This document shows positions 1-21,816 of a DNA stretch of 64,000 nt, in pieces. Below the pieces are notes generated by a model. That model ran no database searches. It was not told where the DNA came from and was given only the letters and a program-made list of their open reading frames with translations. How positions within the stretch are numbered: position 1 is the stretch's first letter; every line of letters starts with the position of its first letter. Source of the DNA: Cenarchaeum sp. Lineage in GTDB: Archaea > Thermoproteota > Nitrososphaeria > Nitrososphaerales > Nitrosopumilaceae. The stretch lies in assembly GCA_965242695.1 (NCBI GenBank), contig CBDESU010000001.1, positions 1,600,001 to 1,664,000 of the forward strand, read 5' to 3'. The position numbers and the translations under genes were made by a program.

Positions 1-206
1 GTCCAGAACGGCAGGCGGCGCCGGCTGCGGTTCCACGGCATCGGTAGGTGCTCGGCCGGCCCGCGCGGCCCTGCCGGCCGCAGGGCCGGCTCTTCAAGGC
101 ATTCCCCGGACGCCGGCGCCTCCATGATGCGCCCCGCGCGGCATGCCCTGGCCGCGCGGCGGGCGCCGTCGGCCGATGCCGGCCGCAGGCTGCGCGCGGC
201 CCCAGG

Positions 207-1259: not shown

Positions 1260-1318
1260 TGCGGTTTGCCCGGGGCCGCAGACCGGCGCGCCGCCGGCGC
1301 CGCCCGCCCCCTGCGGGC

Positions 1319-1696: not shown

Positions 1697-1729
1697 GCGG
1701 GGCGCGCCCCGCGCGCAGGTTATAACCCT

Positions 1730-2146
1730 TTATCGGCGCAGGCGCGGCAGCAGGCCCGCGACAAGCCCCGCGTACTCGTCGTCCGAGAACATGGTGACCG
1801 CCGGCCGCTCCCTCGAGTCGGCCGACCGGACGGCGTCAAGGTGGTAGCACGAGCCGGCGCCGCCCCTGAGCAGCGCGAACCTGAACGCGGGGCACGAGCA
1901 GTAGCCGCGATCGGGGTCGACCCAGTGCTCCTCGCCCTCGCCGACGACCGTCCAGACGCGCCGGCCGCTCGGCTCGAACGCATGCATCTTTACGCCTCCG
2001 CCGTCGGCTATCCTGCCCGCCCTTGCTGCCTTGGAGGGCGCGCCTGCGCGCCGCGGCCGCGCCGTCCGCGCCGCCCGCTGCGCCTGCGGCCCCGGCGGCC
2101 CCCCGCCGGCGCGCTGCGCCGCGGCATCCGCGGTACCGGACGACAT
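1730..2146 (-). CDS. SWIM zinc-finger protein
   Basis: YCSCPAF...CYH SWIM motif; start uncertain (ATG 2146 or 1987); TATA-like tataaaa at about 2168. Confidence 0.7.
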   Translation of the reverse strand: MSSGTADAAAQRAGGGPPGPQAQRAARTARPRRAGAPSKAARAGRIADGGGVKMHAFEPSGRRVWTVVGEGEEHWVDPDRGYCSCPAFRFALLRGGAGSCYHLDAVRSADSRERPAVTMFSDDEYAGLVAGLLPRLRR

Positions 2147-2236
2147 GCGGGCGCGGGGCGGCCCCGCTATAAAAGGGGGATTCGGGCCGTGCGGGGCGTG
2201 CCGGCGGGAGGGGAAGGCGGGCGGGCCGTGGCCAGG

Positions 2237-3016
2237 ATGCTCGCCCCCCGCCCCGCCCTGCTGCTGGAGGGGAGGCGGCGGCTCTTGGCCGTGTCCGACC
2301 TGCACATCGGGCTAGAGGACGGCCTGGCCGCCAACGACATACACGTCGACCCGTCGGGTACGGCCGACGAGGCCATATCCGACATGCAGGAGGCAGTGCG
2401 CGAGGCCCGCCCCGACGCGCTCGTCATTCTCGGCGACGTCAGGTCGGGGACGCGCTCCATATCGGCCGCCGAGTGGGACGGCGTGCCGAGGTTTCTCGAG
2501 GCGGCCCAGAGGGCGGCCGGCTCTGTCATCCTCGTGCCCGGCAACCACGACTCGAACATTGCAAGGCTCGCCCCCGACGGGGTGTCGCTGACGAGCCCCG
2601 CCGGGACGGTCCTCGAGGGCTCGCTCCTCACGCACGGGCATGCCATGCCGTCGGACAACCTCGCGTGGGTCGGCAGGATAGTCATGGGCCACCTGCACCC
2701 CGTGTTCGCCAGCGAGGGATCGCTGCTCGACGGCGAGCGCGTGTGGGTCTCGGTCCGTACGGACAGGTCGGCCGTGTTCCCGTCGCGATCGGGCCCGCTG
2801 GAGGTCACCGTACTGCCGTCTTTCAGCAGGCACCTGCACCGGGGCGGGCGGCGCGGGCCGAGGGGGCGCAGGGGGCGGCGCGGCAGGTCGATCTCGCCGA
2901 TAATGGAGAGGATTGCGGCGGCGTGGCGGCGGGGCAGCCCGGGGGTCTCGGCCAGGATTGCGACGCTGGAGGGGGCCGTGATCGGCGACGAGTCGTCCCT
3001 CGGCTGCGTGCTGTGA
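2237..3016 (+). CDS. Calcineurin-like metallophosphoesterase
   Basis: DLHIG, LGD, GNHD, THGH, GHLHP motifs. Confidence 0.85.
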   Translation: MLAPRPALLLEGRRRLLAVSDLHIGLEDGLAANDIHVDPSGTADEAISDMQEAVREARPDALVILGDVRSGTRSISAAEWDGVPRFLEAAQRAAGSVILVPGNHDSNIARLAPDGVSLTSPAGTVLEGSLLTHGHAMPSDNLAWVGRIVMGHLHPVFASEGSLLDGERVWVSVRTDRSAVFPSRSGPLEVTVLPSFSRHLHRGGRRGPRGRRGRRGRSISPIMERIAAAWRRGSPGVSARIATLEGAVIGDESSLGCVL

Positions 3017-3097
3017 CTGACATCTGATGCCGGGCGGCTCGCGTGCGCGCGATGCAGAGGCGCCGGCGGCCCGGCCGCAGGGGCGGGCGCGGGCGGG

Positions 3098-3475
3098 ACG
3101 GCGATCGCATCTTCGCGGCAGTGTGCGGGCGGAACTCGGCGGAGGACGGGGCGACGTGCAGGACCGTACGGCGATCGCATCTTCGCGGCAGTGCGCGGGC
3201 GGAACTCGGCGGAGGACGGGGCGACGTGCAGGACCGTACGGCGATCGCATCTTCGCGGCAGTGTGCGGGCGGAACTCGGCGGAGGACGGGGCGACGTGCA
3301 GGACCGTACGGCGATCGCATCTTCGCGGCAGTGTGCGGGCGGAACTCGGCGGAGGACGGGGCGACGTGCAGGACCGTACGGCGATCGCATCTTCGCGGCA
3401 GTGTGCGGGCGGAACTCGGCGGAGGACGGGGCGACGTGCAGGACCGTACGGCGATCGCATCTTCGCGGCAGTGCG
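3098..3475. repeat. Intergenic tandem repeat, 70-bp unit x ~5.3
   Basis: Units start at 3101, 3171, 3241, 3311, 3381 and 3451 (gcgatcgcatcttcgcggcagtg...); one T/C variant position. Confidence 0.97.
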
Positions 3476-3492
3476 CCGCTGCCGGCCCGCCG

Positions 3493-6400
3493 TCAGGTCT
3501 GGGCGGGCGCCGAGGCGGCATCGTCGGGCGGCGCAGGCGGCTGCGCCGGCCGCGGGGCCGGATCGCCGCCTGCGCTGTCCCGGTACGGCTCGATCGGCAG
3601 CCGCGTCGTCTCGTTGCCGCGCAGCCACTCTAGCGTGCGCGCGAACGACTCGGCCAGCTCGGGAGTCGTGAGGACCGGCACGCCGAGCTCGAGCGCCTTG
3701 CGCCGTATCTGGTACTCGTCGTAGAGCATGCCGACGTACTTTTCGAGCGTAGAGGTGCTCGGCACGTTTACGATAAAGTCGATCTCGCGGCCGTGCAGCA
3801 GGTCGGCGATGTTCGGCTTGCGGTCCGGCTCGCTGATCTTGTGGACTATGCGCACGCCGGGTATCTTTTCGCGCAAAAACTCGGCCGTATGCTCGGTCGC
3901 AAGTATGCCAAAGCCGAGCGAGTCGAGGAGGGCGACGGTCGGCAGGAGCCGCTCCTTGTTCTCGGTGCCGCCTATGGTCACGAGCGCCGTGCCAGACCGC
4001 GGCAGGCTGTACCCGACCGACGTGAGCCCCTTTGAGAGGGCGTCGTAAAAGCTCGTCCCAAAGCATGCGGCCTCGCCGGTCGACTGCATCTCGACGCCGA
4101 GGACCATGTCGGCCCCGTCGAGCTGCATGAACGAGAACTGCGGCACCTTTATGCCGTAGGTCGGGATGCGCCGCCAGTGGTCGTCGGGCACGGGCGGCAG
4201 GGCCTCGCCGAGGACGGCGCGGGCGGCAAGGTAGATCAGGTTGGTGCGGACGAGCTTTGAGACGAACGGCATCGAGCGCGATGCGCGTATGTTCAGCTCT
4301 ATGACGTACGGCTGCCCGTCGAGGACCAGAAACTGGAGGTTGAACGGCCCGCGCACGCGGAACGCCGTCGCGATCCTCCTCGTATAGTCGGATATGGTGT
4401 CGACTGCGCTGTTGCTGAGGCGCCACGGCGGTATGCACATCATCGCGTCGCCCGAGTGGACGCCGGCGCTGTCGATGTGCTCTACGATGGCGCCGATCAC
4501 GACGTTTCTTCCGTCGCAGACGCCGTCGACGTCCACCTCTAGCGCGCCGAGCATGAACTTTGATATGACGACGGGGTGGTCCGGGGACACGGACGTCGCC
4601 TGCCCGACGTACTTTTTGAGCTCGCCCGGCGACCAGACGACCTTCATCGCTGCCCCGCTGAGCACGTACGACGGCCGCACTATGACGGGGTAGCCGACGC
4701 GGCGCGCAAACTCGCGCGCGCCGGCGATGTCCGAGAACGCCTGCCACGGCGGCTGCCGTATGTGCAGCGAGTCGAGGACGGCGCTGAACTTTGAGCGGTC
4801 CTCGGCCGCATCGACGTCGGCTGGGCCCGTGCCGATGATCTCGATGCCGCTTGCGGCAAGGGCCGGCGTGAGGTTGTTTGCCACCTGCCCGCCGACGCAC
4901 GTGACGACGCCCCTCGGCGACTCGAACTCGGCGATGTCCATTATGCGCTCGTGCGTGATCTCCTCAAAGTACAGGCGGTCGCACACGTCGTAGTCGGTCG
5001 ATACGGTCTCGGGGTTGCAGTTGACGACGGCGATGCTCTTCTCGCCGCGCTCCCGCAGGCCCCACACCATGTTTACGGTGCCCCAGTCGAACTCTACGCT
5101 GCTGCCTATGCGGTACGGGCCGGCGCCGAGCACGACGATGCCGCGCCGGCCGGGGGGCGCGGACACGTCGTCCGAGGAGCCACCGTACGTCACGTACAGG
5201 TAGTTTGTGCGGGCCGGCCACTCGGCGGCTAGCGTGTCGATCTGCTTTACCGACGGTATGATCCCGGCGGCCTTGCGGGCCCGCCGCACGTCCGACTCGG
5301 CGGCGGACGCGGCGCGCGCGATCTGCGCGTCCGAAAAGCCGAGGCGCTTGGCGCGGCGCAGCGTGTCGGGAGGCGGGATGGACGGGGCGGCAGAGGGGGC
5401 CGCAGAGGCCGGCGAAGAGCCGCCCGCCGCCGACGCGGCGGCGGACGGCGCCGGGCGGCCGGCGCCGCCCCCGCCGAGCTCGACGCCCATGCGCACTATA
5501 TTGGCGATCTTTTCGACGAACCAGGGGTCGATTGCGGACAGGCCGCGTATGCGGGCCACGGGCATTCCCCTCCGCAGCGCCTCGGCCACATGGTGGAGGA
5601 TCATGTCGTCGTGGTGCGCGAGCCTGTCCTCGAGCTCCTCGTCTGACAGGCTTCCGGCGCCGCCGGCGGCATCGCGGTTCAGGACCATGCCGTCGCAGCC
5701 GATGCCGAGCATGCGGACGGCCTTTTGGAGCGACTCTTCAAACGTGCGGCCGATGGCCATGACCTCGCCGACCGACTTCATCGTCACGCCGAGCCTTCGG
5801 TTGACGCGCTCGAACTTTGCAAAGTCCCAGCGCGGGTGCTTGCAGACCACATAGTCGAGGGACGGCTCAAAGCACGCCGTCGTCGAGCGCGTAATGTTGT
5901 TGGCAAGCTCGGGCAGCGAGTGGCCGAGCCCGATCTTGGCGGACATGTACGCGAGCGGGTAGCCGGTCGCCTTGCTGGCAAGGGCCGACGAGCGCGACAG
6001 GCGCGGGTTTATCTCGATTGCGGCGTACCGGTCGGACTCTGTGTCGAGGGCGTACTGGATGTTGCACTCGCCGACGATTCCGACGTGCCGAGTGGCCCGC
6101 AGCGCGGCCGAGCGCATCGCGTGGTACTCGGAGTTGTCTATGGTCTGCGACGGGGCCACGACGATGTTGTCGCCGGTGTGCACCCTCATCGACAGCACGT
6201 TCTCCATGTTGCATACGATGACGTTGTTGCCAGCGCCGTCGCGCATCACCTCGTACTCTATCTGCTTCCAGTCGCCGACGTACTCCTCTACGAGGACCTG
6301 GCCGACGAGGCTTGCGTTTATTCCGCGCCCGACGATCTCGTGCAGCTCGATCTCGTTGTGCGCGATTCCGCCGCCCTTGCCGCCGAGAGTGTACGCCACC

Positions 6401-8329: not shown

Positions 8330-9577
8330 ATGGCAGAGCAGGGGGCGCCCCCCATATACCTCGACTACAACGCGACGACGCCCGTGGACCGGCGGGTAGT
8401 CGATGCGATGCTGCCGTGGATGTCGTACAGGTTTGGCAACCCGGCTAGCGCCGGCCACGCGGCCGGGCGCGAGGCGCGGCATGCCGTCGAGGAGGCGCGC
8501 GGGCAGGTGGCTGATATGGTCGGGATGAACAGGCCCGACGTGGTCTTTACGTCCGGCGCGACAGAGGCCAACAACCTTGCCGTGCGCGGCCTGTACCCCG
8601 GCAGCGGCGACGGCGTCTCCATGCACATGCTCGCCGGCGCGACCGAGCACAAGTCCGTCCTCGAGGCGGGCCGGTCGATAGAGGAAGAATACATGAGCGG
8701 CTCGCTGTGCAGCATCGTCCCGGTCCTCGGCGACGGCACGCTCGACCTCGGCGCGCTAGAGTCGGAGATGTCCAGATGGCACGGGGAGATAGACGTCGTG
8801 TCCGTAATGGCCGCCAACAGCGAGACGGGCGTGATCCACCCCGTAAAGGAGGCGGCCGAGATCGTGCACGCCCACGGCTCGATCCTGCACTGCGATGCGA
8901 CGCAGGCGGCCGGCCGCGTGCCGTTTGATGCCGGCGCGCTCGGCGCAGACATGGTGACGATCAGCGCCCATAAAATGTACGGCCCAAAGGGGTGCGGGGC
9001 CCTCGTGGCGACCAGGGAAGCCAGGCGCCTGCTCGGGCCCATGCTGCACGGCGGCGGGCACGAGGACGGCCTGCGCAGCGGCACCCTCAACGTGCCCGGA
9101 ATAGTCGGGTTCGGGGTAGCCTGTACGATAGCCGCGGACGAGGGGCTCGCCGACGCGCCGCGCCAGGAAGGGCTGCGCGACCGGTTCGAGGAGGCGCTGG
9201 CCAAAGAGGTCCCCGACGTAGAGTTCAACGGGGCCGGCGCGCCCCGCCTGCCGAACACGTCGAATGCGAGGGTGCCCGGCGCGATGGCAGAGATGATTCT
9301 CGCCAACGTGCGGCGCGTGCAGATCGCCACCGGCAGCGCCTGCACGTCGGCGGCCGTCGAGCCGTCGCACGTGCTGCTAGCGATGGGCCTCGGCAGGGAA
9401 GAGGCAGGCGAGTGCGTGAGGGTCTCGTTTGGCAGGCCGTCGACGGAGGAGGATGCGGATGCGGCGGCGCTCGACATCGCCGCCGCCGCGGGCTTTATAC
9501 GCGGGCTGGAGGCGCGCGCCGCCGGCATGGATGCGGCGGCAATAGGAGCGGCGGCACGCGCGGAGGCCGCGTCCTGA
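8330..9577 (+). CDS. sspA: Cysteine desulfurase (SspA/DndA/IscS-like) heading the phosphorothioation operon
   Basis: YLDYNATTP, FTSGATEANN, SAHKMYGPKG (PLP Lys), GSACTS (catalytic Cys); stop overlaps the next start. Confidence 0.85.
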   Translation: MAEQGAPPIYLDYNATTPVDRRVVDAMLPWMSYRFGNPASAGHAAGREARHAVEEARGQVADMVGMNRPDVVFTSGATEANNLAVRGLYPGSGDGVSMHMLAGATEHKSVLEAGRSIEEEYMSGSLCSIVPVLGDGTLDLGALESEMSRWHGEIDVVSVMAANSETGVIHPVKEAAEIVHAHGSILHCDATQAAGRVPFDAGALGADMVTISAHKMYGPKGCGALVATREARRLLGPMLHGGGHEDGLRSGTLNVPGIVGFGVACTIAADEGLADAPRQEGLRDRFEEALAKEVPDVEFNGAGAPRLPNTSNARVPGAMAEMILANVRRVQIATGSACTSAAVEPSHVLLAMGLGREEAGECVRVSFGRPSTEEDADAAALDIAAAAGFIRGLEARAAGMDAAAIGAAARAEAAS

Positions 9578-10554
9578 TGCGCCCTGACGAGGCGGCCCCC
9601 GTCGCATCGTTCTCGCGGCACGAGACGTTCCACCTCCGGTACGGGTGGCTCAAGAAGGGGTATGATGCGATCGCAAGGGATCCGCACGCGTTCACGCGCG
9701 ACGATGCGACGGTGAGGCTCGGCGTCGGCAAGAACATGGTAAGGTCGATCCGGTTCTGGGGGCTGGCGGCAAAGGTGTACGAGGCCGACAAGAAGACAAA
9801 GACTGCAAGGCCGACGGAGATGGGCCGCGCGCTGCTCGACGATGCGGGCGGGATGGACCCGTACCTAGAGAGGCCCGACACCCTGTGGATACTCCACTGG
9901 CTCGTCTTTGCGCCCCCCTGCCTGCTGCCGGCGTGGTGGGTGCTGGTCAACGATGCGCTGGCCGGATCCGTCGTCGTGGCCACCGACGACATGAGGAGGA
10001 GGGTGCGCGATGCGGTAGAGTCGGTCGACGCGTGGAGGCGGCCGAGCCCCCGCTCGGTCGACAAGGACTTTGACGTGTTCGTCCACACGTACTCGTCGAG
10101 GAGGGGGCGCGACATGGTAGAGGACTATCTGGACTGCCCGTTTCGCAGCCTGCACGTGCTCCGGCAGGGCACGCGCGACGAGATGAGGTTTGTGCAGGGC
10201 CCAAAGCCCGGCCTCTCGCCGCTCGCCGCCGCGTTCGCATGCCTAGACTTTGCCGACAGGTCGGGGTCGGCAGGGCGCACGGCGAGCGTCCACCGGCTGG
10301 CCATGGAGGCTGGCAGTCCCGGCAGGGCCCTCAGGCTTGACGAGGCCGACATGGCCGATCTCTTGGCGGGGGCCGCCGACGAGTGCGATGCGATCGCGGT
10401 GCGCAACGTAAACGGCGCGCAGAGCCTCGCGTTCGGGGACGGGGCGGGCGCGGCCCGGGAAGAGGTGCTGCGGGCGATATACGGGCGGCGGGCGCGTAGG
10501 AAGGGCAGGAAGAGGATCGCCGCTCCGGCGACTCTGGAGGTCGAGGCCGCATGA
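9577..10554 (+). CDS. sspB: DUF4007 protein, SspB-like
   Basis: FSRHETFHLRYGWLKKG and LGVGKNMVRSIRFW are DUF4007 hallmarks. Confidence 0.85.
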   Translation: MRPDEAAPVASFSRHETFHLRYGWLKKGYDAIARDPHAFTRDDATVRLGVGKNMVRSIRFWGLAAKVYEADKKTKTARPTEMGRALLDDAGGMDPYLERPDTLWILHWLVFAPPCLLPAWWVLVNDALAGSVVVATDDMRRRVRDAVESVDAWRRPSPRSVDKDFDVFVHTYSSRRGRDMVEDYLDCPFRSLHVLRQGTRDEMRFVQGPKPGLSPLAAAFACLDFADRSGSAGRTASVHRLAMEAGSPGRALRLDEADMADLLAGAADECDAIAVRNVNGAQSLAFGDGAGAAREEVLRAIYGRRARRKGRKRIAAPATLEVEAA

Positions 10555-12648
10555 CCCGTGCGAGGGCCGCAGGGGCAGGCAAGAGGGGCGCCGCTCCGGC
10601 AAGGGCGGCCGCGGCCCAAGCGGCTGCCGCAAGGACGGCCGCAAAAAAGAGACACGGTGAAGCCACGCCGCTCACGAGGATCGTGCGCGTGAGGCCGCCG
10701 GCGTACGCCTCGGTCAGCATAGAGAACGACCTGCACGACAAGGGCGGCGGCGCGCTAGACGGCTACATACCCGGCGCGGGCACGCTCGACACCGTATCGC
10801 GGCTTGGCGCCGGCATGCGCGGCGGCAAGCGCGGGCATGCAATCTCGGTGACCGGCCCGTACGGGTCGGGCAAGTCCGCAATGGCCGTATTCCTAGACGC
10901 CCTGCTTGCGCCCAAAAAGTCGCGCGAGTACGCAACGGCAAAAGAGATACTGCGCGAGGCGGACTCCCGCCTTGCCGACGTGTTCGACAAGTCGAGGCTG
11001 CAGCTCGGCATACAGCGGCGCGGGATGATCCGGTGCATGGCGACGGCCAAGCGCGAGCCCGTGTCGGCGACGATACTGCGCGCGCTAGACGCCGGGGCCC
11101 GGCGGCGCTTTGGGGACTACAAGGAGTCCGACTTTGAGGGCGCATCTGCCCTGTCCCGCATGGTGCGCGGCCTGGGCCGCGGCACGGCCCCCGACGCGGC
11201 CGCCGTCGCCGAGGCGGCGCGAGGCATGTGCACGGCCGATCCGGTCATTGTCGTGATCGACGAGTTTGGCAAGAACGTAGAGTACTTTACCGACGAGAAC
11301 ACGCGCGAGGGCGACCTGTTCCTGCTGCAGGAGCTCGCCGAGATGTCGGGCGCCTCGAGGGGCGTGCGCCTGTTCGTTGTGACGATGCAGCACATGGCGT
11401 TCGAAGAGTACGCGTCGGGCGCCTCGTCGTCGCAGAGGCGCGAGTGGGCAAAGGTGCAGGGCAGGTTCGACGACATACCGTTTGCAAACTCGCCAGAGCA
11501 GGCAAGGCGGCTCGTCAGGAGCGTCCTGGGGCCGGCCGGAACGGGCGGCAAAAAGGTCGGCACGGCGCTTCGCAAGTGGTCAAGGGATCAGGCCGGCAGG
11601 GCCGCGGCCATGGGGCTCGGCGGCGACTTGGACGAGGGGCTGCTGCACTCGTGCTACCCGCTACACCCGCTCTCGCTAGAGGTGCTGCCCGAGCTGTGCT
11701 CTAGGTACGGGCAGCACGAGCGCACGCTGATCTCGTTCATGGCCGGCGGCGGCGAGCATACGGTGGCGGGCTTTGTCGACAGGGCCGCGTGGGACGGGGC
11801 GGGGCAGCCGCCGACCGTAATGCTCGACGCGCTGTACGACTACTTTGTGGCCGGCTCGGCCCTGGTCCGCTCGGCGTCGTCGTCGGGCGCATCCAGGCTC
11901 TTGGAGATAGAGACCATAATACGCGACACGCAGGGGCTGTCCGACGACGAGTCGCGCGTGCTAAAGGCCGTCGGCGTGCTGAACCTGGTAGGGAGGGCCG
12001 GCAGGCTGCGTGCCTCGCGCAGCATGGTCGCGTACGCGGCCGGCATTGCAAGGCCCGATGCGGCCCTAAAGTCGCTCGAAAAGCGGTCAATACTGACGTA
12101 CCGCCGGCACTCTGACGAGTACCGCGTGTGGCACGGCACCGATGTCGATGTGCAGATGAGCCTGGATAACGCGCGCCGCAGGCTGGTTGCAATGCCGCTT
12201 ACCGGCCTGCTAAAGGCCACGCTGCCGCTCGACCCCGTGGTGGCGGCCCGGCATGCACTGCAGACCGGCACGACCCGAATATTCGAGAGGGTGTTTGCAG
12301 GGGCGGCCGAGGTAGCATCCGTCCAGCCTGGGCCAGGGTTTGACGGGGTGATCGTGTACCTGGCCGGCGAGGAGAGTGAAGGTCAGAAGGGCGGCGACAC
12401 TCCCCTGCCTGCGGCCGGCAGTCAAGAGGGGAAGAGGCCAGCTGTCGTAATCAGGGCGGCCGATCTAGAGGCCCTGCGCGAGGCTGCCCTGGAGGTCGCA
12501 TCCGTGCGAGACGTTCGCGACAACAGCCCAGAGGTGCAGGCCGACTGGGTGGCGCGCCGCGAGATTACCGAGCGCCTAGCTTGGGCAGAGTCGGCCCTAG
12601 AGAGGGCGTTTGAGGGGGCGTACGGTACAGGGAGTATGATACTAAGCG
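10551..12648 (+). CDS. sspC: SspC-like P-loop ATPase, N-terminal part (truncated at the inversion breakpoint; ORF runs on into unrelated sequence to 12887)
   Basis: Walker A GPYGSGKS, Walker B IDEFGKN, EWAKVQGRF, CYPLHP, GQHERTL. Confidence 0.85.
12634..12648 (+). repeat. Left inverted repeat of putative invertible segment
   Basis: GTATGATACTAAGCG; 14/15 match to the reverse complement of 14238-14252; sits in the dyad ATGATA-N8-TATCAT. Confidence 0.8.
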
Positions 12649-12792
12649 TTATCATCGCGTTTTCTCCTTCTAGGCGTCACGGACAGGCGCGATCGGCGCC
12701 CGGCAGGGCGTTCGGACGGCCGTACAGGGCCGCGTGGACCTCTGCGGCCAAGGGCAGGCCGCGGGCGCCGGCAGCATGGATCGCCGCACAGC

Positions 12793-14250
12793 CTAGCGCC
12801 GCTTGCCCCCCGACAGCCTGCCGCTCAGCTCGGCGAGCAGGGCCTTCACGCCGTCGCCGGCAAGCCCCCTTGCCTGCAGGTCCCTGATGGCACGATCGGC
12901 GGCCCTCTTGACGTGTGGTGCCTTGTCGGGCGGCAGGGCGACGATCGCATTCTCCTCGCCCCCATCTGGCCGCGTCACGGTCACGCGGTACGCAGGATGG
13001 TCGTATGCGTCGGACACCTCTGCGAGGTGCATCGATGCCAAGCGGGAGAACCGAGCCGAGATGTCCCTCAGCTTGTTGGTAAACAGGACGCGCTGCTCGT
13101 CGCTCCACTCGGACGGTGGCATGCCCGTGAGTGTGAGGGCCACGTATTTTATCCAGTCCTCGTTGCTCTCCAGCACGTCGTTTGACACGGCAGTCAGGAA
13201 CACCTTCATCTCGCGGTCCAGCACGTGCGGGGCTACCACTGCGGCCGCCCTCGAAAGCTTTTTGCGGGTCGACATCAAGGTAGACTTCAACACATCCTTG
13301 ACAAGGCCGCCAAGCATTACGCTGAACGCCCCTGACAGCTCGGCCAGCGACTTTGCAAGGGCGGTGGCAAACTTGTATATTTTTTCTTGTCCGGGGTCGA
13401 CATGACCAGACATGGCATCATAACCGAGTGCCCGAGGCAACGACTTTAGGAGCAGTGAGTCCGGTTCGACGGCCGTCTCGACGGCTAGGCGCACGGCGAG
13501 CGCCCTCTTGCTGAGCATCCGGGTCTTTTTGATATGTGGTGGGAGTGATGCATAGACGCCCACGAGGTGGGAGACGACGTCAAGGAGTGATGCCTTTGCC
13601 GCATCTTCCGGGGGCTGGACTCCAAGCTTGCCGGCGACCTGTCGTATGGTGGCCATGGCTGCCACGCCTTGTCCAAAGTATTTTATTTCAAAATGGGCAG
13701 GATTCCTGACAAGGCGCTCTGTAATCTCTGTCGTTATGGCGCGGCAGTACGTCCCGTGCTCGTACAGTGCGATGCGGTCTCGGTGCACGAGCAGGACGGA
13801 CACTGCAAGTAGGGGCATCAGTCCGGCCTTTACGCCGTAGGGCGGTTTGGAGAGTGACTCGTACACTGCAAGCAGGGACAGACGTTTGCCGGCATCTCTT
13901 GCCATCCCGACAATCTTTTTCCATGCAGGCTTGAAGTCTGCCCGGGAGGGAGATCGCATTACATGCACAAGGCCGGGCGCGCGGTGCATTCCCGATCGCG
14001 ACAGGACGGCCTCGTAGATCGCCCTGTCGGGGCCCCACCCCTCGATGCCCAAGAGTGGTGCGTCCGCCCGCTCGACCATGCCGCCGAGGAGCCTGTACAG
14101 GGCCGTCGAGCCCTGCGGCGTCAGCGCGTTGCGGTTGATCATCTCGTTGAAGACGTGCGGCGTGTTCGTGTACCACTGGTCACAGTACTCTGAGGCGATC
14201 GAGCTGGGGGTGTCCGAGCCCTTTGTATGCCCAGTATCGCTTAATATCAT
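12793..14250 (-). CDS. sspC: SspC-like ATPase, C-terminal part in inverted orientation
   Basis: CDQWY..TP...NEMINR..L..QG, GPDRAIY, PPYGVKAGL, IALYEHG motifs typical of SspC C-terminal halves; begins MILS in register with the N-terminal part. Confidence 0.8.
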   Translation of the reverse strand: MILSDTGHTKGSDTPSSIASEYCDQWYTNTPHVFNEMINRNALTPQGSTALYRLLGGMVERADAPLLGIEGWGPDRAIYEAVLSRSGMHRAPGLVHVMRSPSRADFKPAWKKIVGMARDAGKRLSLLAVYESLSKPPYGVKAGLMPLLAVSVLLVHRDRIALYEHGTYCRAITTEITERLVRNPAHFEIKYFGQGVAAMATIRQVAGKLGVQPPEDAAKASLLDVVSHLVGVYASLPPHIKKTRMLSKRALAVRLAVETAVEPDSLLLKSLPRALGYDAMSGHVDPGQEKIYKFATALAKSLAELSGAFSVMLGGLVKDVLKSTLMSTRKKLSRAAAVVAPHVLDREMKVFLTAVSNDVLESNEDWIKYVALTLTGMPPSEWSDEQRVLFTNKLRDISARFSRLASMHLAEVSDAYDHPAYRVTVTRPDGGEENAIVALPPDKAPHVKRAADRAIRDLQARGLAGDGVKALLAELSGRLSGGKRR

Positions 14251-14252
14251 AC
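14238..14252 (-). repeat. Right inverted repeat of putative invertible segment
   Basis: + strand CGCTTAATATCATAC, reverse complement GTATGATATTAAGCG. Confidence 0.8.
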
Positions 14253-14268
14253 CCGTGCGCCTCGGCCC

Positions 14269-15105
14269 GTGCGCCACGTCTGCGGCATCTCGGGCGGCAA
14301 GGACTCTAGCGCCTTGGCCGTGTACATGCGCGAGAGGGTACCCGACATGGAGTACTTTTTCTGCGACACGGGCGCCGAGCTGCCCGAGACGTACGCATAC
14401 CTTGCCAAGCTAGAGGTCGTCCTAGGCAAGCCGATCGCGCGCCTCAACTCGACGAGGGGGTTCGACCACTACTTTGAGGTGTTCAGGGGAACGCTACCCT
14501 CGCCTCAGATGAGGTGGTGCACCACGCTCCTCAAGATAAAGCCGCTGGAGGAGTGGATAGGCGACGAGGAGGTCGTCTCGTACGTGGCCATACGGGCCGA
14601 CGAGAGCAACCGCAAGGGATACATCTCGACAAAGCCGAACATACGCACAAAGTTCCCGTTCGTTGACGACGACATCGACCACGCTGGTGTGATCCGCATA
14701 CTGGAGGACTCTGGGCTTAACTTGCCCGACTACTACAAATGGAGGACGCGGTCGGGATGCTATTTTTGCTTCTTCCAGCGCAAGGCCGAGTGGGTGGGCC
14801 TGGCCGAGCACCATCCTGAGTTGTTCAAAAGGGCCGTGTCTATAGAACAAAAAATATTAAAAGATGCAGGTATAGACGGTGACGCATCATTCGAATCTAA
14901 CGCAATGAAAAATGGTAACTATACTTGGTCGCCCGGCGAAACATTGGAACAGCTTTTAAAACGCAAAGATGATATAATACGTAATCACAAAAAACGTCTT
15001 GAAAAATCTAGATCTGCACAAAAAAATCGACCGTTAATAAGCATTCTGGCAGAAAGTTTAGATAGTGAAAGTTCCGACACGGGATGCACGGTATGCCATC
15101 TATAG
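14269..15105 (+). CDS. sspD: PAPS reductase-family protein, SspD/DndC-like
   Basis: SGGKDS PP-loop, RWCT..LKIKP, RSGCYFCFFQ, terminal CTVCHL. Confidence 0.88.
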   Translation: MRHVCGISGGKDSSALAVYMRERVPDMEYFFCDTGAELPETYAYLAKLEVVLGKPIARLNSTRGFDHYFEVFRGTLPSPQMRWCTTLLKIKPLEEWIGDEEVVSYVAIRADESNRKGYISTKPNIRTKFPFVDDDIDHAGVIRILEDSGLNLPDYYKWRTRSGCYFCFFQRKAEWVGLAEHHPELFKRAVSIEQKILKDAGIDGDASFESNAMKNGNYTWSPGETLEQLLKRKDDIIRNHKKRLEKSRSAQKNRPLISILAESLDSESSDTGCTVCHL

Positions 15106-15330
15106 GTGATAAAAATGACAACAGGTATTAGTTATAAACTAAGCGATCTTATAAAAGAATCGATTCATGAGAAAGAAGGGCCAGACAGTATAAACGAATT
15201 GCTTGTAGACATACTTGAAAAAGAAGCTGAATGGCAATATGAAAGCCCCTATGATGCACTAGCAGAGTTTAAAAAAACATACAAGAAATTAATTCAATTG
15301 CATTGTCCATACAAGGTGGGATCAAATTGA
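15106..15330 (+). CDS. Small protein of the SMC-ATPase module (PbeB-like by position)
   Basis: 74-aa ORF tightly packed between sspD and the ATPase; AT-rich. Confidence 0.55.
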   Translation: MIKMTTGISYKLSDLIKESIHEKEGPDSINELLVDILEKEAEWQYESPYDALAEFKKTYKKLIQLHCPYKVGSN

Positions 15331-17504
15331 ATGGGGAGTATAGGATCGTGGAGGTTCGCCTGAATAACTACAGGCAATATTATGGTTCTGTCACGGTGAC
15401 ACTTGCGTCACAAAAAGACAGATTTGCAGCTGTGATCGGAAACAATGGCGCGGGTAAATCCAACATTCTTAATGCGATCAATTGGTGCTTTTTTCACAAA
15501 GAACCACACATGCGGCAGCTTGAAGGACTTCCAATCATCAACATCAAGCGTATCAAGGAAGCCGATGAAGAATCAAAAATTGAAATGAGTGTATCCGTAA
15601 TACTTGAGCAGGGTACGACAAAATATAACGTAACTAGAAAACTTGCGGTTGTTAAACACAAATTGGAAGTGGGTGCTGATGGCGAGTACCGAATTATTAA
15701 CCTAGAAGATGCACCATATAGTGAGCTTATGCCTGTAGGATTTGAAAAGCTTTACAATCTTTCAAGGCCAACATTTCACAGGTCTGAAAATGGCGGGACC
15801 TGGGAAGATCAAACAAAGTCACATAGATTCAGTGCAATAGTAAATCAAATATTGCCAGAATCGCTATCGAAGTTTTTCTTGTTGGATGGGGAATTTCTCG
15901 AGAAGTTTTTCGATGGACAACAAAAAATTAGCGAAGGTGTGAGGCAAATTTCACAACTTAATGTTTTGGAGGAAACATTGAATCATATAAAACGTGTAAA
16001 ATCGTCAGGTCGTGCTAATTATGATAATCAAAAAGTAAATGATCTCGAAGACAAAATCAAATTACATGAAAAATGGCTGGATTCGTTGGGCGATAACGGT
16101 GAAGAGTTAACGGATGAACTTATACCCGGTACTGATAGGGCATATCACAAAAATGGAGTGCCGAGGGAAAAAGACCTGAAAAGTGCACTAGTATACCTAG
16201 ACAGTGAGCGTAACAACATTCGTAAAAAGCTGTATGAACAAGGACAAATATCCAACGCAGATCTTCATAAGAAAAAGGCAGAGCTGGATGATAAAGTTAG
16301 CAATGTCGGTAGTCAACGATACAAAATTATAAAGCAGCAAAGAGATCTGCTGATTAAACAAAGTCCTAAAATAATGCTGGGCGAGGCCTTGAAGAATACG
16401 ATTGACATGGTGAATGTCGAAATAGAAAAAGGCAAGCTTCCAAATCGAAGTAAAATCATATTAGCTAATGATCTCCTGTCAAGAGAAACTTGCATTTGTG
16501 GAACAAGTCTTAAAACTGGAACCAGAGCGCGTGACAACGTAGAATCAATGAGGGCATCAGTCTACGACGATGTTGATCTAGACTTGGCCAATGATATTAA
16601 GTATGCAAATGAACAAGATGTAGGAAAGATGGTGGAAGTTAAGAAAATGATAGGCAAGAACACGATTGAAATCAATGACTTTGGAGACACATTACGAAAG
16701 ATTGGTGAAGAGATATTAGAGATTAAGAATCAGATAGTTGATGACTCGGATGATCAATTTCAACTGATGACACAACAGGGGCAGCGCATAGACAGGGATT
16801 ATGACAAGGTCCAAAAAGAACTAAGTGATATTGGGTTAGAGATTAAACGGCGGCAAGGAGATTTGAAATCGTGCAGGCAGGACTTGAGCGCCATAAATGT
16901 CAGTAATGAGAAAGTGGCAAGGAGATTATATGAATCAAAAGTGTTAGAACAAGTACATGACTTGCTCGAATCGCTTTGTGAAGATTTAAGCGACAGTATA
17001 AGAAAAAAAATTCAAGATAAAACAACTATGTATTTTAAAAAAATAATGTGGAAGGAGGGATTTTTCGAGCAGGTCCAAATCGACAAGGATTACAGGCTTA
17101 AGTTGCTAACGACGACGGGATTTGATGCTATCGATAGCCTAGCTGCTGGAGAGAAATTGTTTCTTGCGTTCGCATTTGTTGCGGCCCTCCGTGAAATCAC
17201 GGGCTACAGATTTCCATTAGTCATCGATAGCCCGCTTGGAAAAGTGGCAGGAACACCACGAAGGCTATTAGCCAAACAGTTGCCCGTTTTTCTTCCTAAC
17301 TCACAATTGGTTTTGTTAGTCACTAACACAGAATATTTGGTCCCACTTCCTACTAACGATGAAGACCCAAAACCTGGAAAATCGTTCAAGAGTATACTGT
17401 CTGAAAAAGTGAGCGTGTGCGAGTCCGTCATAGAGTTACACAAGGCAAACCACAGCTCTAAGGTCGTTCCGTACGACAACGGGGGGATGGATAATGACTA
17501 CTGA
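15327..17504 (+). CDS. SMC/Rad50-like ABC ATPase with CxC hook (PbeC/DndD-like)
   Basis: NYRQY, Walker A GNNGAGKS, FFLLDGE, long coiled coils, CICG, signature LAAGE, Walker B LVIDSP; TTG start overlaps the upstream stop. Confidence 0.85.
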   Translation: MNGEYRIVEVRLNNYRQYYGSVTVTLASQKDRFAAVIGNNGAGKSNILNAINWCFFHKEPHMRQLEGLPIINIKRIKEADEESKIEMSVSVILEQGTTKYNVTRKLAVVKHKLEVGADGEYRIINLEDAPYSELMPVGFEKLYNLSRPTFHRSENGGTWEDQTKSHRFSAIVNQILPESLSKFFLLDGEFLEKFFDGQQKISEGVRQISQLNVLEETLNHIKRVKSSGRANYDNQKVNDLEDKIKLHEKWLDSLGDNGEELTDELIPGTDRAYHKNGVPREKDLKSALVYLDSERNNIRKKLYEQGQISNADLHKKKAELDDKVSNVGSQRYKIIKQQRDLLIKQSPKIMLGEALKNTIDMVNVEIEKGKLPNRSKIILANDLLSRETCICGTSLKTGTRARDNVESMRASVYDDVDLDLANDIKYANEQDVGKMVEVKKMIGKNTIEINDFGDTLRKIGEEILEIKNQIVDDSDDQFQLMTQQGQRIDRDYDKVQKELSDIGLEIKRRQGDLKSCRQDLSAINVSNEKVARRLYESKVLEQVHDLLESLCEDLSDSIRKKIQDKTTMYFKKIMWKEGFFEQVQIDKDYRLKLLTTTGFDAIDSLAAGEKLFLAFAFVAALREITGYRFPLVIDSPLGKVAGTPRRLLAKQLPVFLPNSQLVLLVTNTEYLVPLPTNDEDPKPGKSFKSILSEKVSVCESVIELHKANHSSKVVPYDNGGMDNDY

Positions 17505-17922
17505 TCTAGATGCAAAATTCCCCGAAGTTTTGTATGATCGAAGCTTGAATGAGAAACTGCTTGAACTTGTCAATCAAGATTGGTCACCATTTAAGGGGCA
17601 TACTATGGCCGACGTGTTCATCTACACTATGGCATACGCATTTTCACGCAACATGAAAGCAAGGCCGCTAAGCCCAAAACCCATGAAACTTCCCCCCCAG
17701 GCATTTGATGCCGAAAAACGAACATTGATGCGCTCGCTTGCAATGCATGTTAAAAACGATATTTCAGTGATTAAGAACAACAACGAAGTTATAACGATAT
17801 GTGCCGAATATTCTAACGCTGGAACTACAGAAGTTTACAATACATTGTACAATAAAGAGCACAACGTCACATCGGAAAATGTGTTGGAAGAGTTTTTGGA
17901 GGAGCGTGACAATTCATGCTAG
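17494..17922 (+). CDS. Small DndE/PbeD-like protein
   Basis: 142 aa, overlaps the ATPase stop; F...MAYAF...EYSNAG pattern reminiscent of Dnd-associated small proteins. Confidence 0.5.
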   Translation: MTTDLDAKFPEVLYDRSLNEKLLELVNQDWSPFKGHTMADVFIYTMAYAFSRNMKARPLSPKPMKLPPQAFDAEKRTLMRSLAMHVKNDISVIKNNNEVITICAEYSNAGTTEVYNTLYNKEHNVTSENVLEEFLEERDNSC

Positions 17923-18886
17923 GCATAATAGGAACATCGGCAAGCACAAGGCGTACGGCAAGATGTACAAAGTGGCATCTATTGCAGATCCAAGGCATTA
18001 CTAGACAAGTCAGAGGGATTGAACATGACACTAATGAATAATAAGTTCGAACCAAAGATGTGCTGGGATTCTGACACAGACAACATACTTGATGACTTTT
18101 ATCTTCAGGGGTTAAAAAATAGCAAGAAGTATGATCGTCTTGCAGGGTATTTTTCATCAACACTATTTGTCAGAACTGCATATGAAACGCTAGATTTTAT
18201 AAAACGTGGTGGGAGAATAAGAATTGTGACCAGTGCCACACTTTCGTATAACGATTTAGATACAATAAAAAACATAAATCACTATGCAAATGCTGTAGAC
18301 GAATCATTCTTAAACGAAATAGTAAAAAATACTAATGAAATAGAACATAAATGTAAATCATTATTTGGCTGGTTGTTGAATCAAAAGGTCGAAGGGAAGC
18401 CGCAGTTAGAAATCAAAATTGCAATGCCAAAAAGGCCTACAGGCATATTTCATCAAAAAGTTGGAATATTTACTCTTGTAGACAACAGCATAGTGACATT
18501 TTCTGGATCAGTTAATGAAACAGTCAAAGGCTGGCAGGACAATGTTGAGCAATTTAAAGTGTTCATGAGTGGAAAGGACAGAACAAACGAACATGCAATC
18601 AAAAATGACCAAGATAATTTTGAAAGGTATTGGAAAAATCAAAATTCTGGATACAAAGTTGTGAACTTACCAAAAGCAGTCACCACCCATTTGCTGTCTA
18701 TTGCCCCCAATTCGGAATCAGAGTTTAAGTCGTTAGTAGACCACTTGGAAAAGAAATTCTACAAAAAGCGTGTTAGATCATCAGGCATAGTGTTGAGAGA
18801 CTATCAAGAAAAGGCAATAGAATTATGGGCAAAAAATAATTTTCGCGGCATATTCGCAATGGCAACGGGTACTGGTAAAACATATA

Positions 18887-20339
18887 TTGTTCACGTCATA
18901 AAGATTTGACTTATTTTACCCAAACTATTTGACGCGGTCAGGGTCTGCAAACAGTGGGATGTATTTTTTGGGCGACTTCGGTACCGGTTGATCGCCGTAT
19001 TTGCGGATTATATAATTCAACGCTCCTTCTTTACCATGTCGATTTTTTCTTCGCTTTATGTTTCGCCTGTATGCATACGGACTTCTCAATAGATATTTCC
19101 AAAGGTTGAGGCGAGGGTTTAACATAGTGTTAAGGTATCTTAGTGTCTTCCGCCTCTTTTTTGTAATACTTGAAAAATATTCATCATAGAACTCGGCAAG
19201 CTTGGTTTGGCGCCAATTTGCCTCCTGTAGACTCAAGTATGACGACCCCGGTGGAAGATAAAATATGATTATCATGTTTTCCATCTTGTCAATGAAATCC
19301 TTTAGTTTCTTGGACTTGTGCCATCCTGCGTTGTCAGAGATCACCACGATTGGGCCGAATTCTTCGACCGCTTTTTTCAAAAGCTTGATGACACCATCAG
19401 TGTTGGCTGCGTCGTACATAACGTTGCAATGCCGAGCAACGCCATTTTTGTCGGGCTCGGTGGTCAGTCCCAGTGCGACACACTTGGAACCCTCTCCAAT
19501 GTAGGGCACCTTGACGGCCTCGCCCGGGGGCGACCAGTAGATCAGCTTGCCGTTCGCGTCTTGGTATACTATCATCTCGTCCTCGATCACCACTAGATAA
19601 CCCTCTTTTTTGAGCGCCAAAATCTGGGGTAGGACCACTTTGCGCCAGTAGTAGACCTCGTGCGGTTCGGGCGATCCAACGTGTGCCTTCTCTGCCTTCT
19701 TTCCGGTCAGGCCTTCCTCGTGCAGTATGCGCAGGGCCTGCCTTTTGGACATTCTTAACTTGCACAGTTTGTACATTTCAGTGATAAGCTTGCGGGGGGT
19801 AATACGACCGCCGTTTTTCTTGATATTTTTGATCGCCTTTTTGACCAGTTTGCGATCATAAACGTGCGGTCGTCCCTGCCCGCCCTTATCGTACAGCCCG
19901 TTGACCCCCTTCAAGGTGAATCTTTTCATGTAATTTCTGACCGAACCTGTGGATACGCTTAGCTCTTCCGCGGTCATTTTGCAGGCCTTTGTTTTTTTCA
20001 TTTTTGATTTTTTGATCTTTACGCGAACAGAATTAACAACTAGCATTCTTTTTAGAGCCCTTGGATCTTTCTCCACCTTGATTGCTCTTTGGAGATTTCC
20101 TAACCTCATTGCCCGCCGACGCTCAGCGGGGTCTATTATATCTAGGCCTGCGTCCAAATGCCTAGAATGAAAAATTGAGTATCAGCTTTTTAGTATAAAT
20201 GATTAAAATCTATGGAATCAATTGATATCAAATCAAGTCCTGGGTGGAGTGTATGCAACCACATCGTCTGCAATCGATCGTTAATGGTTGATGGTTGGCT
20301 TGCTTCACAATTAGTGTCAAAACTTTATGTCCTAAACAA
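18887..20339 (-). mobile_element. IS630/Tc1-family insertion sequence #1
   Basis: Imperfect TIRs TTGTTCACGTCATAAAGATTTGAC / TTGTTTAGGACATAAAGTTTTGAC; TA duplication at 18885-86 and 20340-41. Confidence 0.9.
18925..20157 (-). CDS. IS630-family transposase
   Basis: N-terminal HTHs; DDE motifs EDEM, SDNAGWHKS, YLPPGSSYLSLQEANW. Confidence 0.9.
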   Translation of the reverse strand: MDAGLDIIDPAERRRAMRLGNLQRAIKVEKDPRALKRMLVVNSVRVKIKKSKMKKTKACKMTAEELSVSTGSVRNYMKRFTLKGVNGLYDKGGQGRPHVYDRKLVKKAIKNIKKNGGRITPRKLITEMYKLCKLRMSKRQALRILHEEGLTGKKAEKAHVGSPEPHEVYYWRKVVLPQILALKKEGYLVVIEDEMIVYQDANGKLIYWSPPGEAVKVPYIGEGSKCVALGLTTEPDKNGVARHCNVMYDAANTDGVIKLLKKAVEEFGPIVVISDNAGWHKSKKLKDFIDKMENMIIIFYLPPGSSYLSLQEANWRQTKLAEFYDEYFSSITKKRRKTLRYLNTMLNPRLNLWKYLLRSPYAYRRNIKRRKNRHGKEGALNYIIRKYGDQPVPKSPKKYIPLFADPDRVK

Positions 20340-21816
20340 TACTGCGCTAGGAGGAATCAGCAAAGTGCTGGAAAATGAAAAACGGACAATTGTAATAATT
20401 TCATCTCCACAAAAACACATTGCTGATCAATGGAGAGAGAATATAAAATCATGGAATCAAGGTGTTAAAAAAAAGGATGCGTTGGGAGAACGAGTAGTCA
20501 TGGCCTATAGCGAAAATCCCAGATGGAAAAAAGATATGGATGAATTGGTGTATAAGTTTAACAAGAATGTAATTGGCCATGATCGATTTTTAGTCAATAG
20601 TTGTATAATATGTACAACACACAACACATTTGCGACAGATAAGTTTATTAACAGGATACTCATGATGAAGAAAAACAATGCCAATGTTTTATTAATAGCA
20701 GATGAAGTACATGGAATGGGTTCCCCCAATCGTCAGAACGGGTTGAGTATGCATTATCAATACCGGTTAGGTCTTAGTGCAACACCAATACGTCATTACG
20801 ACGAATTAGGCACAAAAAAAATCCAGGAATACTTTACAAAAACAGTCTACGAACTCCCACTTCAAACAGCGATTTCTGAAGGCTATCTGGTCCAATATAG
20901 TTACCATCCACACTATATCGAACTTACTGATGCAGAGCTAATCGAGTATAGGGATCTAACGATAAGACTCGCTAAAAAATACATGGCCAAAGCAAGGGGT
21001 GAAAAAGTTGATGAAAGTGACACGAGATTGGAAGAGATGAGATCTAACATAATTGCTACGGCCATAAATAAGTATAATCAATTTGAAAATATAATAGATG
21101 GGTATGGAAATTCTCTTACGCGGTGCTTGGTATATTGTCATCCAAAACAAATTGATACTGCAACAAAAATTTTGACTGCGAAAAATATCATAAACACAAA
21201 AATTACGTGGAAGGACCCTGCTCATGATCGAGAACGGATCATTAATGCACTGGAAAACGAACAATATCAATGTGTCACTGCGATACGTTGCCTAGACGAG
21301 GGGTACGATATACCGGCCGCAAAGTTGGCCATAATTTTAGCTAGTTCAGGAGATCCCCGCCAATATATACAACGTAGAGGAAGAGTGTTACGGCGATTTC
21401 CATGTAAGGATCACGCAGAAATACATGACATATTAGTAAAACCGTCACGAATTGTTGATCAAAATGTCGAAGTGTCAAGATACATAAAAAAATTAGTGGC
21501 GCGTGAACTACTACGTCATAAAGAATTTGCAGATGCCGCATTCAACAAAAAAGAAGCATATGAAAAGGTTTATGATACGGCACAAAATTATGAAATTGTC
21601 TTGGATGAACTTTCACCGTCGTATATAGAATCAATTTAAAGATTATTTTCATAAAGCAATATTACCCGCTCCAGATCAGATCAGATCTCCCATACAACAT
21701 TAGTACTGCCGATCGTAATGTCACATCATCTGTCGTATTACCGGTTCTGTCAATTGTACATTGAGGCCGACAGACGTTTAAAACCGTCAAGCCGTGTTCT
21801 GAAAAATTCAGAGGGG

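Follow-up and report, generated by a model that had tools for sequence, protein, structure and literature searches.

A 64,000-nucleotide (nt) stretch of the genome of Cenarchaeum sp. (assembly GCA_965242695.1, contig CBDESU010000001.1, positions 1,600,001 to 1,664,000 of the forward strand) was analyzed and is called the window here. It contains an ssp operon for DNA phosphorothioation (PT), in which the sspC gene is found in two parts on opposite strands. A reading of this DNA made earlier from the sequence alone proposed that the inversion of a segment in sspC switches PT on and off. Our analysis supports the core of this sequence-only reading. It is directly supported by the inverted repeats that bound the segment, the collinearity of the fused protein with intact SspC, the presence of both orientations in sequence data, the conservation of the sites and the purifying selection on both parts of the gene.

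The ssp operon and the divided sspC gene

sspA, which encodes a cysteine desulfurase, is located at 8330-9577 on the plus strand. It matches Pfam Aminotran_5 with 212.9 bits and the PADLOC SspA profile with 403 bits, over profile positions 1-368 of 374. sspB is listed as an open reading frame (ORF) at 8992-10554 on the plus strand, with 258.5 bits to Pfam DUF4007 and 283.8 bits to PADLOC SspB. Its true start is probably near 9600, the DUF4007 part being residues 207-497 of the listed ORF. sspD, a PAPS-reductase-like gene, is located at 14269-15105 on the plus strand and matches Pfam PAPS_reduct and the PADLOC SspD profile (363.5 bits, positions 1-276 of 277). The three genes are all on the plus strand and are arranged in this order around the N-terminal part of sspC, which is the context of an SspABCD operon.

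As the sequence-only reading had noted, the C-terminal half of SspC is encoded on the opposite strand. The N-terminal part, codons 1-695 with the P-loop ATPase region, spans 10551-12635 on the plus strand and has a weak match to AAA_16. Its ORF continues to 12887 (10551-12887, 778 amino acids (aa)), passing through the left repeat into a nonsense tail of 79 codons and a stop at 12649-12887. This tail is poorly conserved compared to the sister species G004. The C-terminal part is located at 12793-14250 on the minus strand and is listed as protein P0003. It has 485 codons counted from an ATG inside the right repeat; the whole minus-strand ORF, 14277-12793, encodes 494 aa. Positions 12649-12792 (minus strand) are a non-coding spacer that separates the sspC stop from the right site once the gene is restored. 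The PADLOC SspC profile PDLC02781 (1104 positions) is split between the two parts. The plus-strand ORF covers positions 3-635 with 621.8 bits, and the minus-strand ORF covers positions 655-1101 with 348 bits. Over window positions 12600-14600, the GC content is lower in the C-terminal part (59-62%) than in the N-terminal part (66-69%).

Inversion of 12649-14237 in silico produces a single frame of 1180 codons with one terminal stop, as had been predicted for the fusion of 695 and 485 residues. The fused protein is collinear across the junction with PDLC02781, and with the intact SspC of the related genome G002, to which 451 of 664 residues are identical before the junction and 301 of 485 after it. 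It is also collinear with an SspC from Vicinamibacteria, which is 36% identical and served as the outgroup. The junction is located in a variable linker between two conserved SspC blocks. G002 has different residues there and no repeat.

Recombination sites and the evidence for both orientations

The inverted repeats are 15 nt long, match at 14 of 15 positions and are located at 12634-12648 on the plus strand and 14238-14252 on the minus strand. Both encode M-I-L-S in frame within their respective sspC halves, and the positions and this reading agree with the earlier description. Written with one degenerate base, the 15-mer occurs exactly twice in the window, and at least two matches were found in none of 100 dinucleotide shuffles. 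A scan of the whole genome, designated G000 (3,887,671 bases in two contigs, C1 and C2), revealed no further copy with 0 or 1 mismatch. The next best matches have 2 mismatches and are found at two places elsewhere.

As assembled, the left site (12634-12655, plus strand) is a perfect dyad, with 7-nt arms around a 6-nt TAAGCG spacer (7-6-7). This confirms the dyad proposed earlier. Its outer arm is at 12636-12642, its core at 12643-12648 and its inner arm at 12649-12655. The right site (14231-14252, minus strand) shares with it the core (14238-14243) and, except for one variable base at 14244, the outer arm (14244-14250). Its inner arm (14231-14237) falls in codons 5-7 of the C-terminal part and is nearer to the consensus in G004. 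Inverted arms around an identical 6-bp overlap, the 7-6-7 arrangement, are the layout of tyrosine-recombinase sites. Another perfect 7-6-7 dyad with the same arms is found at C2:1026150. It has a different spacer, is located in coding-looking sequence and has no partner site, and we attribute it to chance.

Within 14200-14352, 8-mers with seven or more A/T form a single cluster, which is located in the right repeat. The cluster spans 14240-14251, with starts at 14240-14244. A TATA-like octamer in it (14241-14248, plus strand) is located 21-28 nt upstream of the sspD start and is a putative promoter element. TATA-like boxes are found at the same distance from sspD in relatives, for example in G002 and G021. 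The right site appears to overlie a TATA-like promoter box of sspD, and sspD probably has its own transcript, which is likely leaderless.

The Logan contigs (k=31) of four runs were aligned to window positions 11600-15300. Runs X7, X8 and X11 are three samples of one study, and X10 belongs to a second study. In X7 and X8, the 15 loose letters before 12634 are the reverse complement of 14253-14267. In X7, X10 and X11, the 15 loose letters behind 14252 are the reverse complement of 12619-12633. Both are junctions of the flipped state, and all four runs contain at least one of them. In X11 a flipped-state junction is also found with a variant right flank, i.e. in a second strain. Contigs with the junctions of the assembled state are present as well (X10 record 3, 12619-12672, 54 nt; X8 record 29, 13466-14267). 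The 1589-nt interior (12649-14237) is therefore found in both orientations in the contigs of all four runs, and the sequence data do not support a single orientation.

The ends of the contigs are also informative. The left flank stops at 12648, the interior begins at 12643 and stops at 14243 (X7), and the right flank begins at 14238. We simulated an equal mix of the two orientations as a k=31 de Bruijn graph, with the one variable base kept on the outer flanks. The graph contained the unitigs 11600-12648, 12643-14243 and 14238-15300, and four 54-nt junction unitigs. The observed contig ends are the same as those predicted for the mix (12648, 12643, 14243 and 14238), and the 54-nt contig in X10 is also predicted. 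The interior contigs end right beside the variable base, which indicates that this base stays with the outer flanks and that the strands are exchanged on the core side. Judged from the contig ends, the predicted crossover is within the TAAGCG core. In X10 the left-junction contig of the assembled state has a depth of 4.1, compared to 7.9-9.2 on either side; contig depth is not equal to the share of cells, and these depths hint at a mix of similar shares.

A public protein contains the restored junction. P0020 (465 aa, from a 16,431-nt contig) is an exact substring of the flipped SspC, residues 282-746, and extends across the junction. Its sequence is missing from the assembled-state ORF. This fragment of the intact (ON) state ends at about 14098. 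Near this end, 14100 is joined to 14267 on opposite strands in contigs of low depth (21.8 in X7 and 7.4 in X8; about 92% identical in sspD). The joint may reflect an indel, another rearrangement or a break of the assembly graph in conserved sequence.

The sequence-only reading had called the element an intragenic inverton. The inversion of sspC stands, and the strictly intragenic position does not. In the restored state, the right repeat comes after the sspC stop (12793-12795, minus strand) and the spacer, 144 nt beyond the stop. This makes the element a ‘partial intergenic’ inverton. Both this class and intragenic invertons are defined in a preprint by Chanin, West et al. (PMC10028968).

Relatives, a candidate recombinase and the surrounding genes

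A 4.5-kb query covering sspC and sspD has matches in 10 of 41 related genomes. In G004, which represents a sister species in the same genus, the match has 81% DNA identity over query positions 112-4392 and is in one collinear piece, i.e. sspC is split in the same way there. In G002, G003, G015 and G021, the interior is on the strand opposite to the N-terminal match relative to G000, indicating that sspC is intact. G002 and G003 lack the repeats. In G004 the repeat cores are the same at both ends, including the same difference of C on the left and T on the right. The left site is identical at 22 of 23 positions between G000 and G004, compared to 46 of 95 in the neighboring stretch, which does not code in the intact state. 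For the right site, 15 of 15 positions are identical, compared to 40 of 60 and 11 of 16 in the adjoining sequence. Among 401 family genomes, only G000 and G004 contain the forward and reverse pair of the 13-nt core pattern. Single matches of this pattern are found in eight other genomes, about as many as with a reversed-pattern control.

Both sspC halves are open in both species. The ratio of nonsynonymous to synonymous substitution rates (dN/dS) between G000 and G004 is 0.26 for the N-terminal part (692 codons, dS 0.45), 0.21 for the C-terminal part (484 codons, dS 0.67) and 0.125 for sspD. These values indicate that both sspC halves are under purifying selection. An old inactivating inversion is unlikely because of these values, the open halves and the sites conserved amid diverged flanks. 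The sequence-only reading had also raised a one-off inactivating inversion, and this is argued against by the fact that the sites and both halves are conserved in the sister species.

Homologous proteins indicate how widely the split layout is distributed. With the junction region of P0020 as the query, 18 proteins were found: P0020 itself spans the junction, 10 contain only the N-terminal part and 7 only the C-terminal part. The ten N-terminal ORFs (287-808 aa; clusters at 90% identity) read through the site, with MILS in six and VILS in four. In all ten the inner arm reads V-[IT]-[IM], and the tail past the site is 75-82 codons long and unconserved. The clusters with VILS at the left site are P0145, P0146, P0147 and P0149. 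Where both parts are found on one contig (P0005 with P0147, P0009 with P0149), the C-terminal part retains MILS. This suggests that the outermost base of the outer arm may differ between the two sites.

A search with the C-terminal part gave 19 matches among proteins of similar length, and seven of these are clusters that are 75-100% identical and 485-512 aa long. Six of the seven begin with the ATG provided by the repeat (MIL[S/R]); in the seventh, P0005, this motif is preceded by 26 additional residues, which are antisense to sspD. P0007 is encoded on a 1616-nt contig with the C-terminal part only. This contig is about the size of the G000 interior unitig (1601 nt) and would fit a mixed population there too. 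Among longer proteins, 122 full-length matches (E ≤1e-30) are each a single fused gene. The best is the G002 SspC at 64% identity, and no full-length SspC with at least 75% identity is found among the 122. No related locus with the C-terminal part was found in JGI metagenome contigs, and the genome-contig collection contained only the 36%-identical Vicinamibacteria SspC. Since the split state predominates in assemblies, the switch looks biased toward this (OFF) state.

We found no match to a tyrosine, serine or IS110-type recombinase inside the window. This agrees with the earlier statement that no recombinase is encoded there; an IS630-like DDE transposase is present at 18925-20157. The serine recombinase model PF00239 and the XerD model TIGR02225 have no match in the genomes G000, G004 and G002, and detect 12 of 14 and 14 of 14 controls, respectively. 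The XerA model NF040815, which detects 14 of 14 controls, has no match in G000 and G004. The left site had been compared to Xer/dif sites. Its tyrosine-recombinase-type layout is upheld, and the Xer/dif identity is not, since no XerA, XerC or XerD homolog was found. A Xer/dif dimer-resolution site was also rejected because the two copies are inverted and 1.6 kb apart in the ssp operon, rather than a single site per replicon. The lack of matches in these genomes, of 3-4 Mb in two contigs each, raises the question of how chromosome dimers are resolved.

PF00589 has a single match in G000, a 526-aa protein encoded at G000:C1:2155936-2157513. There is one match in G004 and none in G002. The G000 and G004 proteins are 79% identical, and their loci are collinear over 9 kb. 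The G000 protein matches the phrog_216 integrase with 27.5 bits and reaches 24 bits on Xer models, compared to cut-offs of 220 and 335. The catalytic residues R283, K329, H412, R415 (HxxR), H438 and Y444/Y451 are invariant in six members of its family. This family is found in 21 of 151 family genomes searched, in some as multiple copies, and is a lineage integrase family. It was not found in G002 or G003, the genomes without the repeats. Sequence and profile searches found no relative in the PDB. By elimination and co-occurrence, this divergent tyrosine recombinase is tentatively proposed as the likeliest invertase. Its gene is tail to tail with a GmrSD_N/DUF262 gene (PADLOC NsnA, 145 bits), within G000:C1:2152000-2161000.

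The IS110-type loci were rejected as a dedicated invertase. They are not syntenic between G000 and G004 and were taken as mobile copies, which may still act. The IS110-type gene at G000:C1:683148-684815 has an N-terminal extension of three near-identical repeats of about 45 residues, rich in K, P and A.

Downstream of sspD, a low-GC Pbe-like effector module spans 15303-21639 on the plus strand. It contains a PbeC-like gene (15303-17504), an ORF of 142 aa (17494-17922) and the pieces of a PbeA-like gene (18019-18909 and 20212-21639). The PbeA-like gene (PLD and helicase) is broken into profile positions 8-283 and 284-671 by the IS630-like element, whose transposase gene (DDE_3) is on the minus strand. 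A 31-nt string from this element is found at four places in the genome (C1:1619255, C1:2014092, C2:877673 and C2:981276), indicating that it is multi-copy. Its ends do not resemble the 15-nt repeats. The DNA downstream of sspD is a low-GC island (window positions 14600-21800) with a GC content of 37-44% compared to 68%, and the drop starts within the 3' half of sspD. The effector differs by species: in place of the Pbe-like module of G000, G004 has one GmrSD_N+GmrSD_C (SspE-like) gene with 39% GC. In G002, 9 kb with HNH nuclease, IS66 and IS630 transposase genes are located between sspC and sspD.

The host is probably a sponge-associated ammonia-oxidizing archaeon. This is based on several observations. 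G000 contains archaeal small-subunit and large-subunit ribosomal RNA genes, the former with 1450 bits across the whole model. Its GC content is 67-68%, and the available text on published sponge-associated Thaumarchaeota gives values up to 67% (PMC7848895). Small shares of the window (0.11-0.20) are found in six sponge-metagenome runs, a weak hint at the habitat. At 3.9 Mb (G000), 3.7 Mb (G004) and 3.2 Mb (G002), these three genomes have about double the size of most family genomes (0.8-2.7 Mb among those compared). The window also contains a tRNA-Pro (CGG) gene at 33203-33302, which at 100 nt is probably intron-bearing.

Interpretation and relation to known systems

We propose that sspC is toggled between a split and an intact form by programmed, recurrent site-specific inversion of a ‘partial intergenic’ inverton, to which we assign a probability of roughly 0.68. 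The inversion would take place between two 20-bp sites, one in the variable sspC linker and the other on the TATA-like box just upstream of sspD. A recombinase encoded elsewhere would exchange strands within the core and flip the 1589-nt interior. In the assembled orientation, sspC would be cut after codon 699, with the N-terminal part gaining a nonsense tail of about 79 codons. The 485-codon C-terminal part would face the other way, with no promoter-like element ahead of it. SspC is described as one of three core activities of PT writing in the available text of a review (PMC12707154). With this activity cut off into a tail and the C-terminal part devoid of a promoter-like element, PT writing should stop, i.e. 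SspABCD would be unable to write PT and the adjoining PT-dependent effector would be silent. In the flipped orientation, the intact 1180-aa SspC would be made and the system would be on.

Work on other organisms suggests what the OFF state may mean for the cell. Both Pbe (PMC6459918) and SspE (PMC8092258) need PT to act, and cells devoid of PT are unharmed, according to the available text of these papers. By analogy, an OFF writer should silence the defense without self-damage. The benefit may be bet-hedging between defense and its cost. We infer that the inversion is reversible within a lineage, in which case it would cause phase variation of the sulfur epigenome, as the sequence-only reading suggested. 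In a more specific form of this proposal, the PT switch of a clade of probably sponge-associated, Xer-less archaea is OFF-biased, acts by splitting the gene and is driven by a domesticated and very divergent tyrosine recombinase. We regard this form as possible, at somewhat less than even odds.

Several observations weigh against a programmed switch. The junctions are seen in contigs, each with 15 letters of flank beyond the repeat, below the 31-letter bridging threshold, and they give no ratio of the two states. The right-site inner arm is degenerate in G000. The candidate recombinase scores 28.8 and 30.5 bits on PF00589, barely above the cut-off of 27.1, and IS110-type genes are also present, four in G000, two in G004 and one in G002. 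The link between recombinase and site is drawn from elimination and a comparison of two related genomes with two others. The split state is the consensus in every related cluster sampled, all ten N-terminal ones included, on contigs from 1.6 kb to 3.98 Mb, and evidence for the ON state comes only from the G000 strain and, in X11, from one variant flank. With so strong an OFF bias, a switch can hardly be distinguished from a stable split layout that flips rarely. This bias is the strongest argument against free flipping and in favor of the alternatives discussed below. In addition, pbeA is disrupted by an insertion sequence in G000, and the locus may be decaying.

The samples are also not known to be clonal, so that co-existing strains with fixed ON and fixed OFF states would fit. 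There would then have been one or a few inversion events in the past, owing to illegitimate or short-homology recombination between the 15-nt repeats or to a recombinase that has since been lost, and the fixed split and fixed intact strains would persist side by side in host-associated populations. Several strains are indeed mixed in X11, which has 111 further differences and a variant of the flank at 12634, and both the split consensus of the ten clusters and the disrupted pbeA, as part of a decaying system, would agree with such a polymorphism. However, an old fixed split allele should decay, yet the halves are open with dN/dS of 0.21-0.26 at dS of 0.45-0.67. Conservation of the sites extends to the arm that does not code in the intact state, and is seen both amid diverged flanks and across the ten clusters. 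The flanks of the intact-state junction are identical to the G000 strain, with P0020 being 100% identical over its 465 aa, and both states are found in every run of the two studies. A 15-nt repeat with a mismatch is also a poor substrate for homologous recombination. We consider such a standing polymorphism unlikely.

The consensus of the ten clusters and the purifying selection on both parts could also be explained if the split gene were the normal working form. The N- and C-terminal parts of SspC would be made from opposite strands and assemble, and the fused form would be a rare by-product. The repeat does provide an in-frame ATG at the head of the C-terminal part in G000, G004 and six other C-terminal clusters. 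However, no TATA-like 8-mer is found upstream of this part; the only A/T cluster in 14200-14352 is located at the start codon and not about 26 nt before it. The N-terminal part has no stop at the site and instead runs into the unconserved tail of 75-82 codons. A working split gene gives no reason for conserved inverted sites, including an inner arm that is non-coding in the intact state, and the 122 full-length matches in intact relatives are all one fused gene. This explanation is quite improbable. Orientation errors in long-read assemblies classically occur where a segment is edged by short inverted repeats, and the segment could be misoriented in an assembly with one true state. This is contradicted by the independent k=31 contig sets, in which the assembled-state junctions (X10 record 3 and X8 record 29) are found beside those of the flipped state. 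The independent assembly of another species (G004) has the same layout, and the split-state ORF runs on through the site in ten protein clusters from other assemblies. We regard an assembly artifact as exceedingly improbable, and an explanation other than those discussed here as very improbable.

The proposed switch has features in common with several known systems. The preprint on invertons reports 12 archaeal examples in 42 datasets, 36 from Euryarchaeota and 6 from Crenarchaeota, and its available text does not contain the word stem ‘phosphorothio’ (PMC10028968). As in the invertons described there, the repeats are short and inverted, flipping truncates the gene (‘premature stop’), the invertase is often unlinked and mixed orientations are found in the data. 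Unlike in that set, as far as its available text describes it, one repeat at the ssp locus is in the gene and the other is located 144 nt past the stop, on the predicted promoter box of the next gene. The flipped piece is also large, 1.6 kb or 41% of the protein, the archaeal group is outside the data of that study, and the target is phosphorothioation. A review uses the term ‘phase variation’ for modification enzymes in its available text (PMC12707154). The ssp locus resembles phase-variable restriction-modification in that a DNA rearrangement would alter an epigenetic writer in the population, and hence defense and possibly expression. Well-known cases are phasevarions and tyrosine-recombinase-based hsdS inversion systems, as in Streptococcus pneumoniae and Mycoplasma pulmonis. 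Phase-variable restriction-modification shuffles specificity domains or slips methyltransferase repeats, whereas here a sulfur-insertion ATPase would be switched all-or-none, and no alternative cassette is seen.

The fimS element of E. coli is flipped by the tyrosine recombinases FimB and FimE at 9-bp inverted repeats and is OFF-biased. The ssp element shares with it the short inverted repeats, the tyrosine-recombinase-type layout, the apparent OFF bias and a promoter element at one end. However, fimS flips a promoter without coding sequence and its recombinases are adjacent, whereas here coding sequence is flipped and no recombinase is found nearby. In the sigK/skin system of Bacillus and the nifD element of Anabaena, split genes are rejoined by site-specific recombination during development. 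The likeness is in a gene in two parts, with a recombinase restoring the frame through a site that encodes a few residues. In those systems the excision is irreversible and occurs in a terminal cell, whereas an inversion can in principle go both ways.

In its gene order, the locus is similar to SspABCD-SspE (PMC8092258) and PbeABCD (PMC6459918), with sspA, sspB, sspC and sspD in this order and an effector behind them, which is a Pbe-like module in G000 and a GmrSD/SspE-like gene in G004. The available text of these two papers describes no control by inversion. PT marks are partial and vary from cell to cell. The available text of a 2018 review points out the likeness to phase variation, for which no mechanism was found in the dnd genes (PMC6435447). 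Judged by titles and abstracts among the matches listed, no literature linking inversion or invertons to phosphorothioation was found. Invertons that alter genes and phase-variable modification enzymes are already known. What is new here is a PT-writing ATPase as the target of an inverton, the host group, and a recombination site that overlaps a predicted promoter box.

The locus provides a concrete and testable model of a PT switch, for which the sites are mapped, a 6-bp crossover core is predicted and a candidate enzyme is proposed. It also extends the known range of invertons that alter genes into a lineage of archaea that has no long-read survey data in the available text of the preprint (PMC10028968) and in which no Xer was detected. 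For annotation, there is a risk that sspC is called as two unrelated or broken genes and the system is scored as defective when it may be switchable. If the right site doubles as the sspD TATA box, flipping may also retune sspD. If our interpretation is correct, it would provide the first case of an epigenetic writer controlled by an inverton in this group of archaea, and the first DNA-rearrangement mechanism for ON/OFF heterogeneity of the PT epigenome.

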